Below are positions 12,365 to 54,673 of a DNA stretch of 64,000 nt, in pieces. The notes below the pieces were generated by a model, which saw only the letters and a program-made list of their open reading frames with translations, searched no databases and had not been told where the DNA came from. Origin of the DNA: Octopus vulgaris (Eukaryota); contig OX597818.1 of assembly GCA_951406725.2 (NCBI GenBank), positions 7,440,001 to 7,504,000 on the forward strand, given 5' to 3'. Position 1 is the first letter of the stretch; each line of letters begins with the position of its first letter. The translations under genes were made by a program, and so were the position numbers.

Positions 12365-12728
12365 TTTTTTTACTTGTTTCAGTCATTTGACTGCGGCCAT
12401 GCTGGAGCACTGCCTTTAATCGAACAACTCGACCCCGGGACTTAATCTATCGGTCTCTTTTGCTGAACCGCTAAGTGACGGAGACATAAACACACCAGCA
12501 TGGGTTGTCAATCAATGCTAGGGGGACAAACACAGACACACAAACACACACACATACACATACATATATATATACACATATACGACGGGGTTCTTTCAGT
12601 TTCCTGTCTACCAAATCCACTCACCAGGCTTTGGTCGGCCCGAGGCTATAGTAGAAGACACTTGCCCAAGGTGCCACACAGTGGGACTGAACCCGGAACC
12701 ATGTGGTTGGTAAACAAGCTTACCACAT
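12365..12728 (-). mobile_element. SINE family A, near full length
   Basis: B box (GGTTCAGTCCC on minus), CORE-like GCACCTTGGGCAAGTGTCTTC, internal (CA)/(TA) tract and family tail. Confidence 0.9.
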
Positions 12729-12736
12729 ATATATAT

Positions 12737-12846
12737 AGGCGCAGGAGTGGCTGTATATTAAGTAGCATGCTTACCAACCACATGGTTCTGGCCACCAATG
12801 CCTTGTGGGTGGATTTGTTAGGCGGAAAGTGAAAGAATCCCGTCGA

Positions 12847-26228: not shown

Positions 26229-26290
26229 CTGGGACTGAACTTGGAACCACGTGGTTGGTAAGCAAGATACTTACCACACAGCCACTCAGC
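26229..26290 (-). mobile_element. SINE family A head only (empty target site)
   Basis: GGGACTGAACTTGGAACCACGTGGTTGGTAAGCAAGATACTTACCACACAGCCACTC. Confidence 0.8.
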
Positions 26291-30575: not shown

Positions 30576-30976
30576 TACTCTCTTTACTCTTTACTCTTTT
30601 ACTTGTTTAAGTCATTTGAGTGCGGCCATGCTGGAGCACCGCCTTTAGTCGAGCAAATCGACCCCGGGACTTATTCTTTGTAAGCCCAGTACTTATACTA
30701 TCGGTCTCTTTTGCCGAACCGCTAAGTGACGGGGACGTAAACACACCAGCATCGGTTGTCAAGCAATGCTAGGGGGACAAACACAGACACACAAACATAT
30801 ACACACACACTTATATATATATATATATATATATACGACAGGCTTTTTTCAGTTTCCGTCTACCAAATCCACTCACAAGGCATTGGTCGGCCCGGGGCTA
30901 TACGAGAAGACACTTGCCCAAGATGCCACGCAGTGGGACTGAACCCGGAACCATGAGGTTGGTTAGCAAGCTACTT
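30576..30976 (-). mobile_element. SINE family A, 3' part (split by insertion)
   Basis: Well-preserved tail, CORE-like block and B box; stops at GGTTAGCAAGCTACTT and resumes at 33232. Confidence 0.93.
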
Positions 30977-33231
30977 TATTTCAAAACATTTGCCATAAAG
31001 GCAGTACACAGATTAAGTTAGCTTTGCGGGCTGGACGAAGACATTAATGAAGTGAATGATAATGAAAGACAGATGATAAGGATGGGAGAAGACAAAAAGT
31101 GCCCGCCGACTTTCGCTTCTCTAAAACATTGTTCTTTTTAAAGATAAACACAAAACGAGGTATTAAACCTCTTACAATTTTTCCAATTTTTGGACTTAGC
31201 AGTCCATTATTAATAAAAATACAAAACGAGGTATTAAACCTCTTACAATTTTTCAATTTTTGGACTTAGCAGTCCATTATTAATACTAACAGTTCAATAA
31301 TTACATATCGTCCTCGAAATAGCTTGTGCCCGCGCCCTCCACCATCAACCACACCTCCCTCAGAACGTAATCAAGTTCCGAGTTCGCGTCGCCCGGGACC
31401 AAGCTATAATCTTCATTGAGCTCCTTTAGCCCAAGCGTTACGTCGAACGCCACGGCCTCCACAGCTATCTGCGGAGGCCATTCGGGGTCCTGTGTGAAGG
31501 CTAAAGGTGCTCCCTTGTGGTGCTCCTCCATCATTTTTTTTTCAATTTCTCCTCCTCTATAGAAGAGGACCAATACGTTCAGTTCTTTCGTTGGCGGCAC
31601 AGTTCCCGCCAACGGTATTCCTTCTCTTGTCGGTGGCACAACCCCAACCGACGTAGTTCCGGGACATTCCGGTGCTACACTGACAACCGGTAATGTCCCG
31701 TTTTTCTTCCTCTTTTCTTTTTTTTTCCCTTTTCAACTGAGGGAGGGTGCGTCTCCTCCGTGGCTGGAAGATTCGCCTTCCTCTCCTCATCCCTATTATC
31801 CTTTGGTGAGCACCCATTGTTGCTCACCTTCCTCTTTCGGCCTCTGTTTGAGGAGTCCGCTGCTTTCTCGGCCGTTATCGTTCCCTCTTCTAGAGGGGTT
31901 TTACTTAACTGTTCCGGGATCCTATTTTGTTCCCGAGGACAGTTCTTCTTTATGTGGCAGGATTCCAAGCACCGATGACACTTAGGGGGGTGACCCTCAA
32001 GCATCACCGGGTACCTGCACCCGGCCATTTTCAAAAAATCTGGAAGAACCAGATTGGCTGATTGGGTCCACAGGGTCAAAATTGCTTTTGACCCAACCCA
32101 AGCAGCCGCAGGAAGAACTTTTACATTAAGGAGCTTAGTTTCGCTGCCACCCAGACCCCGGCGGATAGTCTCCTCTATCCACTCGGGTTCTATGTCGGGT
32201 GGCAGTCCGCAAATCCAAGCTTTCATCAATTTCTTTTTTTGTACGTGGGCAGGAATAAGATTTCCTTACCCTCCAGGGGTTTGCTAGCAAATTTGCAAGC
32301 CTCTTCAGGGGTGTCAAATAGCAACCACACCGTTGCATATTTGACACCCCTGGAAATGAATTTAATTGTTGGCAAATACTCTTCCAACTCCTTTTCAATT
32401 GCCGTCTTTTCGAATAGGGCGATGGTGTCGAGTGCCTTGGAGTAGGTTCTCAACACCACCGTCCTATCTTCACGGTCTTTTAACCACTTTTTAGGTGGTA
32501 TGATTTCCCATTCCAAGATTTTGTTATTTTTCATTGCCATGTTTTTTTTAAAATATATTCAAATTAAACTCAAAAGGCAAGAAGAAAAAAGTTCAAAAGT
32601 CCAAATAAAATTTGATAGATTTTTGAAAAAACTAAAAGGAGAAAGCACAACAGAAGGGAAGAAATCAACGGAAAGTCGCAATAAAGAAAAAAACAAAAGG
32701 GGGGGTTAAATGAAGTTCAAAAGAAAGTTAATAAACAGAAAAAACACAGCAAAAATATTCTGGCCTTGCGGTACTCCCGGCCTGGGTTGAACCTGGAACG
32801 CCGCAACTGCAACACAACCTCCACAAAAATGGGTCCGAAAGGTAATCCAATAGTGGCTTATTTTTATAATTTTCTTGCGAAGTACTCTGACAAGGGAATA
32901 AATTCAACACACCCAAACACAGCACTGGCTACCGCCAACGGTAATTTTAACAGTAACTGTATTGAATTCCAAGGATACGCCCCTCCACTGTTTTTTCTTT
33001 TTTTTTCAATGAACACAAAAACGGCAGCCGCCGAGAGCAGGCGAAATTGTCTCAGAGTTGGACACAACTTACTGAAATAATAATTGGCACGCAATAAATT
33101 ATGCCCAACTCACAATAAACAAAATCACTTACCTCGACAACTTTCCGTTTTTGGTCTTTTTTCTTTAATTGGACGGAGCTGGTTGACTCGCGTCCACTCT
33201 GGCTGAACAGGAAGCAACTGTCTAACTGCGT
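30977..33231 (-). mobile_element. ORF1-only Tx1/L1-like non-LTR retroelement, copy 1, inserted in a SINE head
   Basis: Perfect 15 bp TSD GTTAGCAAGCTACTT (30962-30976 and 33232-33246), ~690 nt 5' UTR, a single gag-like ORF, ~320 nt 3' UTR and no RT or endonuclease; homologous to 52190-54160. Confidence 0.88.
31301..32540 (-). CDS. ORF1/gag-like nucleic-acid-binding protein (RRM-like + CCHC knuckle), two frameshifts in A-runs
   Basis: ORFs 32226-32540, 31675-32229 and 31301-31639 join into ~413 aa if one base is added to each of the T7 (32234-32240) and T9 (31718-31726) runs. Motifs: TVWLLFDTPEEA, KAWICGLPPDIEPEWI, CHRCLESCHIKKNC. Confidence 0.75.
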
Positions 33232-33270
33232 GTTAGCAAGCTACTTACCACACAGCCACTCCTTCGCCTA
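33232..33270 (-). mobile_element. SINE family A, 5' head (split by insertion)
   Basis: Reverse complement TAGGCGAAGGAGTGGCTGTGTGGTAAGTAGCTTGCTAAC, containing the A box. Confidence 0.93.
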
Positions 33271-52151: not shown

Positions 52152-52189
52152 AGGCACATGAGTGGCTGTGGGTATGTAAGTTGCTTACC
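52152..52189 (+). mobile_element. SINE family A 5' head (split by insertion)
   Basis: AGGCACATGAGTGGCTGTGGGTATGTAAGTTGCTTACC. Confidence 0.85.
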
Positions 52190-54160
52190 TTACTACAGTA
52201 GAGTTCGCTTTTTTTCATGGTGCTTGGAAGTCTGTTTTGTTTTTGGGGGCTTAGTGGCGTTTGTTGCTCTGTAATTAATAATTTTTGTTGAGCAGCATTC
52301 TCCACTCTCTTCCAGACATTTGCCTTTCTGTGGTCCTGCGAAAAGATTCACTTTGCAGTGAGAATTGTGTTTTGGGGAAGCGAATTCCCCCCGGAAAATG
52401 TTTTGTTTGTAAAATTGTCTTTTTCTTGTCTGTGTCCGTGCCGAGAATTACCTTTGGATTTACTATTCTGGCAAGGAGTGCGAAGACGGCAAGAATATAA
52501 TTTTTGTGCATATACGGAAAACTGCGAATTGTGGATTACCTGAGTGGCAGAATTTTGTTGCCAGTTGAACTGTCTTCATTCTTTTCTCGTCTGTCTTTCT
52601 GTTCCTTCTTTGTGCTTTATTATTGACTTTTATTTCAACATTTTGGACATTTTGATTTTTGGAACATTTTATTTTTATTTGATTTTTAAAAAATGGCAAC
52701 AAAGAATACCACTTTGGAGTGGCGAATTGTGGCCCCCAAAGAATGTCTCAAAAATTATACTGAGAGAACGGTGGTTTTAAGGACCTAATCTAGGGCGCCT
52801 TGAAACCATCACTGTGTTCTCTCAGCCTGAGATTGAAAAAGAATTGGCAGAGTACCTGCCGAGTTTTAAATTTATCCGTAGGGGAGCAAAGTATGGAACT
52901 GTGTGTGTACTCTTTGACACCGCTACGGAGGCACAAAAATTTACGTGCCAACCGGTGGAAAGAGAGAAGATTTTGTTTCTCAACACATGCGGTGGGTAAA
53001 AATTAACGAGAGCTTGGGTGCGTGGGTTGCCACCCGGAATTGAGCCCGAGTGGATAGAGGAGACTATCCGCCGGGGTCTGGGTGGCAGTAACACCAGGCT
53101 ACTGAATGTAAGGATTATGCCTGCGATTGACTGGGTGAGGTCAAAAGCTGTTTTGATCCTATGGACCCAGTCAGCCGAAGATCTGGTAATACCGGATTTT
53201 TTGACGTTGGCGGGTTCCAGGCACCCGGGGATCCTTGAGTGACGCCCCCCCCAACTGTCACCTGTGCCTGGAAGCAGGCCACATAAAGAGGAACTGCTCC
53301 AGGAACCAAGCTAGGGAACTGGAGCAGTTAATAGAGGATGTTTTTCCTCCATCGGAGCCTCCTGATTATTTAATGGAGGGAGAGGAAAAGAAAGTCGAGG
53401 AGGTGGTAACCCCCTTGAAAGGAAAAAAAAAGAAGGTGGACAACAATGGTTGCCCACCTATGGATTCTGAGGCGGCGGAAGTGAGGGAAGACTCCCGGAC
53501 AAGTTAGAGGAACTCCACGCTCCCGTCGAGAAGAGGAAATAAAGGAAAAAGAAAGAAATTAACGGGACATCACTGGCAGTTGACGATCAACTGCCAGCAT
53601 GCCAGTCCATCCGAGAAAGAGGAAAGATGAGTTTGTCATACTTTTTCTGAAGGGAGTGGCGATAGAAAGCTTCCTAAGGAGGCGAGAAGGCTGGACGGAG
53701 GAGCACTTAGCCTGGACCGAAACCCGAATTCGCCTTCGCAGGTGACTGCGAAGGTCATATCGGATATCAACATGTCCAGGGTGTTGCGCTCCTTTACGAA
53801 GGACTTGTTTAGAGTGGATTTTTGGGACCCCGACCGGGATCCGGAGCAGTACCTATGGGCAGCTCACAGCCTGGTCTGGGACGAAGAAGAATAGGCTTAG
53901 CGCCGAAATATGTAAATATATTTTTATATTTGTAATGATTAATATTGTCGTTATTTTAGACGAATTGTAAGAGGTTCATTGCCCCATGTAATGTATTGTT
54001 AAAGAACAATGTTATAGAGAAGCAGAGGGTCGGCAGGCGCCTTCTGTCTTCTCTCATCCTTATCATCCTTGCATCATTATCATTCATTTCATTAATATCT
54101 TGTCCAGCCCGCAAAGCTAGCTAATCTGAATACAGTCTTCATGAAAAATTTAATGAAATA
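52190..54160 (+). mobile_element. ORF1-only Tx1/L1-like non-LTR retroelement, copy 2, inserted in a SINE head
   Basis: Imperfect 16 bp TSD ATGTAAGTTGCTTACC (52174-52189) / AAGTAGCTTGCTTACC (54161-54176); same architecture and same 3' end (...GAAATA) as copy 1. Confidence 0.87.
52693..53915 (+). pseudogene. disrupted ORF1/gag-like gene (RRM-like + CCHC knuckle)
   Basis: MATKNTTLEWRIVAPK..., EIEKELAEYLPSFKFIRRGAKYGTVCVLFDT, GLPPGIEPEWIEETIRRGLGGS, CHLCLEAGHIKRNC; several stops and frameshifts. Confidence 0.8.
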
Positions 54161-54548
54161 AAGTAGCTTGCTTACCAACTACATGCTTCCAGGTTCATTC
54201 CAACTGCGTGGCACCTTCGGCAACTGTCCTCTACTATAGCCTAGGGCCGGCCAAAGCCTTGTGAGTGGATTTGGTAGAGGGAAACTCAAAGAAGCCCGTC
54301 GTATATATGTATATATATATATCTATGTATGTGTGTATGTGTGTATGTTTGTATCTGTGTTTGTCCTCCTAGCATTGCTTGATAACCGATGCTGCTGCAT
54401 TTATGTCCCCGTCAGCTAGCGGTTCGGCAAAAGAGATCGATAGAATACGTACTGGGCTTACAAGGAATAAGTAACGGGGTCGGTTTGCTCAACTAAAGGC
54501 GGTTCTCCAGCATGGCCACAGTGAAATGACTGAAACAAATAAAAGAGA
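54161..54548 (+). mobile_element. SINE family A, 3' part (split by insertion)
   Basis: Resumes AAGTAGCTTGCTTACCAACTACATG...GGTTCATTCC...GGCACCTTCGGCAA through tail CTCCAGCATGGCCACAGTGAAATGACTGAAACAAATAAAAGAG. Confidence 0.92.
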
Positions 54549-54673
54549 ATATATGACAGGACACAGATAGTGTGTCTATAGCCAGCGGGAGGAGGTGTCT
54601 TCCTGGGGCTACAAACTACAGTAGCATCCACCCTTTTGGGTTAGCCATATTCAAATGGCATATATGCATCACG

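Follow-up and report, generated by a model that had tools for sequence, protein, structure and literature searches.

Results

Two related elements interrupt the same SINE position

The window, a stretch of 64,000 nucleotides from Octopus vulgaris, contains two related inserts of about 2 kb in opposite orientation, each interrupting the same SINE after GTG(T)GGT. Copy 2 is a decayed non-LTR element of about 2–2.3 kb on the plus strand (52183/52190–54160), which encodes an ORF1 protein only and no reverse transcriptase (RT). It is inserted in the SINE head at GTGTGGT/AAGTAG (slashes within sequences mark junctions), and so is copy 1. The two loci comprise the following features.

52153..52173, plus strand: 5' stub of the copy-2 host SINE, with an A-box-like TGGCTGTG(T)GG motif, recognised from the sequence, adjoining the insertion point
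52174..52182, plus strand: host-derived part of the target-site duplication (TSD), about 9 bp, decayed ATGTAAGTT
52183..52189, plus strand: probably subfamily-borne, target-like 5' end, GCTTACC before T(T/C)AC (TSD in the first-pass annotation)
52190..52692, plus strand: 5' UTR of subfamily D (older, copy-2 type), aligning to L152, L153, L155, L160–L165 and others
52693..53894, plus strand: decayed ORF1 with two predicted RRM-like domains, a CCHC knuckle (53256–53297) and a basic low-complexity C-half
54134..54160, plus strand: 3' tail, a hairpin with 4-bp stem and 5-nt loop, then ...GAAATA; family form TGTC-TTCAT-GACA, decayed in copy 2
54161..54549, plus strand: rest of the host SINE from target AAGTAGCTTGCTTACC, with a B-box-like motif, microsatellite and 3' body
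33246–30962, minus strand: copy 1 with its repeats
30977..33237, minus strand: copy 1, young subfamily A ORF1-only element; ORF1 at 32540–31301 with two frameshifts
33238..33268, minus strand: copy-1 host SINE stub plus AAGTAGCTT
30590..30976, minus strand: copy-1 host SINE remainder

Consistent with the first-pass annotation, the 3' junction is GAAATA/AAGTAGCTTGC in both copies, at 54160/54161 in copy 2 and at 30977/30976 on the minus strand in copy 1. The flanking repeats, also described correctly there, are 16 bp long with three mismatches in copy 2 (ATGTAAGTTGCTTACC at 52174–52189 and AAGTAGCTTGCTTACC at 54161–54176) and a perfect 15 bp in copy 1 (AAGTAGCTTGCTAAC); the three mismatches fit the age of copy 2. 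The host SINE stub of copy 2 is found upstream of nearly all full-length copies, and the target-like 5' start of the copy-2 element recurs in L153/L020, L163, L171 and L174. The sequence AATAAA at the 3' junction (window 54156–54162) is made of the last bases of the element and the first two of the target, and no poly(A) signal internal to the element lies nearby.

The two inserts belong to different subfamilies, as had been proposed. Specifically, their 5' UTRs (type D in copy 2, type A in copy 1), said to align barely, give no BLASTN alignment, and identity is 70% over the first half of the ORF and 79% over the last 200 nt. The inserts differ by 21–30% where alignable, and the host SINEs by 14% (148 nt) and 11% (201 nt). 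The ORF of copy 2 has frameshifts and stops and lies in three frames with several internal stops; that of copy 1 also lies in three frames with stop-free aligned blocks, in agreement with the view that copy 2 is the more decayed. The nearest sampled insert to copy 1 is 0.9% away and the best genome matches of copy 2 are 87–88% identical, which bears out insertion at different times. The 3' UTR of copy 1 carries a tandem duplication of about 70 nt, common to its subfamily (window 31176–31309, minus strand). Elsewhere in the window, two host-type SINEs, one of them 5'-truncated near the target site, lie head to head as an inverted repeat (12692–12794), and more SINE copies occur on the minus strand at 26232–26277, 12360–11974 and 8111–7909.

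The ORF1-only element encodes a selected RNA-binding-type protein

The ORF1-only element, hereinafter the passenger, is 2.05–2.3 kb long between its junctions, with a single ORF of 397–415 aa in intact copies. No ORF2 match was found inside ORF1-only elements or anywhere in the 64,000-nt window. The AlphaFold2 model of ORF1 (16-row alignment, pLDDT 82) has two RRM-like domains and a knuckle. Fold searches retrieved tandem-RRM proteins with modest scores (Foldseek E ~2e-4; VIA Z ≤8.7, rmsd 2.4/75 residues), and the model supports assignment to this fold class with no specific relative. Pfam returned a sub-cutoff zf-CCHC only. Protein database matches comprise one 'uncharacterized protein' of Octopus sinensis and one partial sequence; the same database yielded no longer or fused form of the protein, which is weak evidence.

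Passenger ORF1 is 24–34% identical to ORF1 of co-resident two-ORF elements, with invariant residues in common, and 29% identical to that of the helper element described below. Between subfamilies, dN/dS is 0.09–0.26 over the first 205 codons (dS 0.1–1.9) and 0.18–0.55 over the C-half; passenger ORF1 is under purifying selection. In two subfamily pairs the N- and C-halves have very different dS, indicating swaps. In the ORF1 tree the passenger forms a separate clade with 100/100 support, apart from nine sampled autonomous ORF1s including the helper's, with the caveats of a long branch and an incomplete sampling of autonomous families. On the separate clade, and within that sampling, we rejected the passenger as a deletion product of the present helper. 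Given the low identity of its ORF1 to that of the helper (29%) and the purifying selection on it, the passenger is best regarded as an old parasite lineage rather than a recent deletion.

One site in the SINE head is used across the genome

The genome search covered 2.8 Gb. Candidates numbered 1,446 and 1,886 with the tails as queries and 8,501 with the ORF, and of these the best 40, 40 and 150, respectively, were scored; the sampled loci (L numbers) are therefore ranked by similarity, not random. The exact tail pattern has 533 genomic matches, and in 347 the next bases are AAGTAGCT; reversed-pattern controls have no match genome-wide, which argues against chance as the source of the common site. 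AAGTAG is the endpoint in 50/50 loci selected by ORF and in 30/30 selected by the copy-1 tail. Among 30 copy-2-tail loci, 11 end in the SINE, three adjoin another element at its junction and 16 lie at other positions; most of these 16, two of which are one segmental duplication, begin with an AAGTAG-like hexamer. The subfamily of copy 2 is thus less specific. AAGTAGCT is missing next to 186 of the 533 tails. Twenty of these were examined (from the 32 such tails among the first 100 listed): 12 are SINE sites with another allele or a mismatch, four lie in another SINE family and four elsewhere.

Older copies are 5'-truncated at many points with a fixed 3' end. TSDs of 12–16 bp flank copies at non-SINE sites (L011, L027, L028, L030 and L254, three of them preceded by GGT), and truncated copies in the SINE have TSDs of 6 bp (L246), 9 bp (L154) and 16 bp (L252). 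This combination points to insertion by target-primed reverse transcription at a preferred sequence, with a fixed first nick, as the first-pass annotation had suggested.

In the tail subfamily GTAAT/CG, AAGTAGCT follows in none of 10 cases and AAGAAG in nine; decayed helper relatives likewise have AAGAAG. Chance empty sites in the sampled loci (n=24) carry AAGTAG in 19 cases and AAGAAG in four. Target allele and tail subfamily thus go together, through age or specificity. The tail stems among the first 100 listed are TGCC/GGCA (85), TGTC/GACA (9), TGTC/GGCA (5) and TGCC/GACA (1).

The insertion position is inside the SINE head, 22 nt past its start. The head has A- and B-box-like motifs by eye and no Rfam tRNA match; octopus tRNA-SINEs were reportedly described by Ohshima and Okada in 1994. 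Because insertion falls between the two box-like motifs, it should disable the SINE promoter. A second SINE family (L181–L204; L245, L247, L253, L258) has L1/Tx1-type tails, GCCC-CTTGT-GGGC AATAAAGAAAT or TGCC-CTTRT-GGCA...GAAAT, and occurs at the same site occasionally (about 20 of 24 pattern matches) and elsewhere with TSDs of 15–20 bp. Contigs from sequencing runs labelled with two other organisms span all 30 bins of copy 1; the family is thus probably shared with related species.

Inserts and host SINEs have separate histories

Inserts and 135 nt of host were aligned separately for 79 full-length copies with both junctions (82 copies were classified, and three with a tandem 3' flank were dropped). 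In the 40 closest insert pairs the inserts are 0.4% apart and their host SINEs 10.0%; for the helper, element ends are 1.1% apart and host SINEs 7.4% (17 copies). The Mantel rho between insert and host distances is 0.09 (p 0.07) for 66 young copies, rising to 0.42 (p 0.002) once 13 old copies are pooled with them. Host distance to consensus is 5.9% for young versus 11.8% for old copies, and we read the pooled correlation as an age effect, with old inserts in old hosts. The first-pass annotation had called copy 2 a second, independent insertion at the identical SINE position and had proposed aligning inserts and hosts separately; near-identical inserts in hosts 10% apart, together with the unequal divergence of the two copies and of their hosts, confirm this independence and lead us to reject co-amplification.

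The 5' junction combines host and element bases

Comparison of the two flanking repeats across the 66 young full-length copies shows matching bases at positions 1–9 in 64–66 copies and at position 10 in 42. Beyond that point, the 5' allele tracks the type of 5' UTR. Specifically, GCTAAC is present in 28 of 32 type A copies (the other four are variants) and in 7/7 of type C, and type B has a one-base-shorter CTTACC in 23 of 27, irrespective of host allele. Type A or C copies with a non-CTAAC host show the host allele on the 5' side in 0/14 cases. A private host variant at position 7 is present on both sides in L079; variants restricted to one side (five 3'-only, four 5'-only) are expected from later mutation. 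The 5' repeat therefore consists of about nine host-derived bases followed by element-borne bases (or a longer overhang was trimmed back to the cDNA). In R2 elements, target-like sequence at the RNA ends can guide junction formation (5' co-transcript behaviour).

These data do not sustain the earlier argument that each repeat matches its own host allele (CTTACC versus CTAAC). In subfamily D, host and element mostly share CTTAC (10/14), and bases 10–16 of copy 2 are probably element-borne, judging from types A–C with discordant alleles. In that case the 15- and 16-bp lengths stem from different 5' ends in the two subfamilies and are no proof of a shifted second nick. A variable second nick, also proposed, is real in the 5'-truncated copies, with their TSDs of 6–16 bp; the one-base difference between the two copies does not bear on it. 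The 5' repeat might instead be a true TSD of 15–16 bp, the second nick differing by one base: truncated copies L028, L252 and L254 do have TSDs of 15–16 bp, copy 2 itself is compatible given the allele agreement in subfamily D, and a nick at 15–16 followed by trimming of mismatched bases would leave the same products. However, agreement already falls at position 10, the type B deletion is inherited whatever the host, and the host allele never appears in discordant type A/C copies, and we regard a true TSD of this length as rather improbable.

Some 5' ends (L069, L159, L061; window 33170–33270, minus strand) are antisense to the upstream SINE stub. In type C a 23-bp hairpin forms with the stub (G-U changes only, z −3.4), and L159 has an exact inverted 12-mer. 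Pairing reaches p 0.007–0.03 for types B, C and L159 and is weak overall; against shuffles, 8/57 distinct 5' ends reach p≤0.05 and none 0.01, and the helper 5' end has no antisense stretch to the stub. Antisense ends possibly arose when the inverted repeat present in the target, GGTAAG...CTTACC, folded back on itself. At L244 a 33-nt host stub is duplicated before the element, perhaps by a template jump. An HDV-like ribozyme at the 5' end was rejected: descriptor matches occur in 4/8 ends at inconsistent places and in none of the helper.

A young two-ORF element uses the same base

Two of the 20 fetched tails without AAGTAGCT, L250 and L263, have an ORF2 upstream and an older SINE allele downstream. 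A search with the L263 ORF2 end listed 150 matches, 14 of them with open frames of 1133–1150 aa. All 19 fetched 3' ends (13 of the 14 open-frame copies and six others) lie at the SINE site with a hairpin/GAAAT tail, and 17 of them represent one young family, TGCC-TAAAT-GGCAAATTATATGAAATA/AAGTAGC. The putative helper is a young two-ORF L1/Tx1-type element with APE-RT and the same 3' hairpin-GAAATA tail type as the passenger; its tail is TGCC-TAAAT-GGCA...GAAATA, and only about 30–37 nt of tail are common to the two.

The fourteenth copy, L265, lies in an array of ORF1-only element, 5.7 kb helper, ORF1-only element and SINE, with AAGTAGCT at every joint. Its upstream ORF1 has a CCHC knuckle, and its ORF2 frame spans 1140 codons and contains APE, YADD and zinc-finger motifs; the atlas families of helper ORF2 are RVT_1, Exo_endo_phos and zf-RVT. 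A sister family, L150 (59% identical), matches Exo_endo_phos, RVT_1 and zf-RVT, and its best PDB match is L1 ORF2p. Helper ORF1 groups among autonomous ORF1s. The label 'L1/Tx1-type' derives from ORF1, the APE/RT/zinc-finger ORF2 and target specificity, in a comparison containing no named Tx1. The helper contemporary with copy 2 is known as decayed relatives only (L250, L263, L279, L281, L005).

As a control, 50 loci of other L1/Tx1-like families were examined, of which a single one, the chimeric locus L121/L224, had its end at this site. Candidates from an initial zf-RVT search (30 + 20 loci of 150 listed, from 25,803 candidates) were discarded for their other flanks. The pattern for a helper ending in AATAAAGAAAT has no match genome-wide, and looser patterns of this type gave 24 and 103 matches, mostly the second SINE family. 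Related hairpins also terminate further autonomous families, which insert elsewhere; given this and the short common tail, the hairpin alone may not select the helper. With L121/L224, of another family, in an array at the site, other ORF2s may contribute there.

Arrays, chimeras and other families

Helper and ORF1-only elements form mixed tandem arrays, and ORF1-only arrays of four or five units occur at L143 and L146. Inside the latter (L224 + L146, C7:13470000–13486500), an autonomous element of another family carries an ORF1-only-type 5' UTR, which suggests template switching. Another member of the L146 array has a third ORF1 type with the same element ends. At L150 (6261–7905 and from 7933), an autonomous element is fused, with no TSD, to a downstream member of another ORF1-only family that has a distinct tail and target (AATGTAGAG...). 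Other two-ORF families (L206–L208, L147–L149; L212, L216, L219; L215, L218) appear to have their own fixed targets, such as GGAAGCGACACCTAC, where 5.4 kb units form a near-perfect tandem array, and GAAATTCGGCAAAG.

Discussion

We consider it highly probable that the helper endonuclease opens the SINE-head site and that the passenger is carried in trans to the same base. Specifically, the apurinic-type endonuclease would nick the bottom strand at GGT/AAG(T/A)AG in the abundant SINE head, and reverse transcription would be primed at that nick. ORF2 would recognise the hairpin-GAAATA tail in cis or in trans, so that passenger RNA with the same tail could be captured by helper ORF2 and integrated at the base where the helper itself inserts. 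For enzyme specificity and RNA recognition, we extrapolate from known Tx1/L1 biology. The passenger would produce its own ORF1 RNA-binding protein, maintained by selection. The top strand would be joined past about nine host-derived bases to the target-like 5' end. Because that end resembles the target, both junctions would recreate the site and permit the further insertions seen as mixed tandem arrays, within which 5' UTRs and ORF halves would be exchanged.

Alternatively, the target could be chosen mainly by the RNP, through binding of passenger ORF1 to Pol III factors on the SINE (a mechanism put forward for TRE5-A) or through base-pairing between its 5' RNA and the SINE head, with cleavage by a loosely specific endonuclease. 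The loose AAGTAG-like motif at off-site insertions, the conservation of an ORF1 far from the helper's, the antisense 5' ends, above all the type C hairpin, and the foreign autonomous element with a passenger 5' UTR would all fit. However, the helper uses the same base despite an unrelated ORF1 and no antisense stretch, few 5' ends beat shuffles, a third ORF1 type and another SINE family occur at the same site, and array junctions distant from an intact A/B-box pair are reused. We therefore think RNP targeting unlikely. That one ancient SINE insertion was later co-amplified as a composite unit is extremely improbable: the SINE flanks every young copy on both sides and the pooled Mantel rho is 0.42, but near-identical inserts and helper ends lie in divergent hosts, 5'-truncated inserts outside SINEs carry their own TSDs, single SINEs are split around tandem arrays, and host stubs are truncated to various extents.

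Beyond delivery by the helper to a common base, we tentatively entertain a three-tier system, with considerable doubt. The SINE head would be the dedicated target of an intact LINE, exploited by an ancient ORF1-only lineage with its own selected RNA-binding protein and with target-mimicking 5' ends (in some subfamilies antisense to the head) that rebuild the site, and which tracked the SINE allele from AAGAAG to AAGTAG. Passenger ORF1 or 5' RNA might then actively aid capture of ORF2 or of the site, and SINE copies would be disabled by insertions separating the A box from the B box.

Every ingredient has a counterpart in the accessible parts of the literature on sequence-specific Tx1 families, SINEU passengers, HAL1 and TRE5-A.2 (PMC4494074, PMC4640811, PMC5753468, PMC3159450, PMC10499050). 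Target-specific Tx1-clade elements include Tx1 (into Tx1D), Keno (into U2) and Tx1-Mar (into Mariner-N4_AMi); like the helper, they have two ORFs, an APE-RT-zinc finger ORF2 and a fixed site in a multicopy sequence, and, like the octopus system, tandem insertions with a common TSD and non-autonomous passengers on the same target (SINEU). Unlike the octopus target, none of the Tx1 targets described in the portion available is a SINE, and the octopus passenger is protein-coding (PMC4494074). HAL1 (half-L1) resembles the passenger in being non-autonomous, encoding ORF1p only and relying on an L1-type ORF2, but is a mammalian L1 derivative for which the accessible text describes no sequence-specific target (PMC5753468); the passenger is site-specific, has an RRM-RRM-CCHC ORF1 far from the helper's, and ends in a hairpin tail, not poly(A).

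Dictyostelium TRE5-A.2 is likewise ORF1-only and mobilised in trans by a full-length ORF2, needs a structured 3' module and targets Pol III-type loci. According to the sections available, however, TRE5-A inserts about 50 bp upstream of tRNA genes via TFIIIB/TFIIIC, and TRE5-A.2 arose from its helper by deletion (PMC3159450). The octopus element, in contrast, occupies a sequence motif within the head, and its ORF1 lineage is separate. TFIIIB-guided insertion of the TRE5 type, at a fixed upstream distance, was rejected on the position inside the head. R2 and other rDNA-specific elements share the fixed first nick but, in the text available, R2 has a restriction-like endonuclease and one ORF (PMC10499050); the octopus elements have no consistent HDV-like ribozyme.

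Thirteen recently active L1-Tx1 families have been counted in an octopus, in a paper whose accessible part mentions neither target, nesting nor an ORF1-only element (PMC13282606). No description of a SINE-head-specific LINE with an ORF1-only partner was found in the literature searched, a scope to which Repbase Reports and most subscription journals did not belong; a Repbase/Dfam entry, or an unnamed listing in the repeat library of PMC13282606, may exist. The ingredients are thus known (target-specific Tx1, HAL1, TRE5-A.2), and their combination was not found in print.

In this genome, one very common short repeat family serves as a fixed landing pad for two other families. The helper is a natural, young and intact APE-type LINE that is sequence-specific with a short defined target, and the passenger indicates what signals at the 3' and 5' ends are sufficient for delivery in trans; together they would form a compact system for studying specificity and trans-mobilisation, and could be considered for targeted integration. 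A rare in-genome readout of 5' junction formation comes from the hundreds of dated insertions into marked host alleles. The passengers are 2-kb elements with almost no database match, which annotators would file as unknown repeats or genes. An ORF1 selected apart from that of its helper bears on why half-LINEs retain ORF1.
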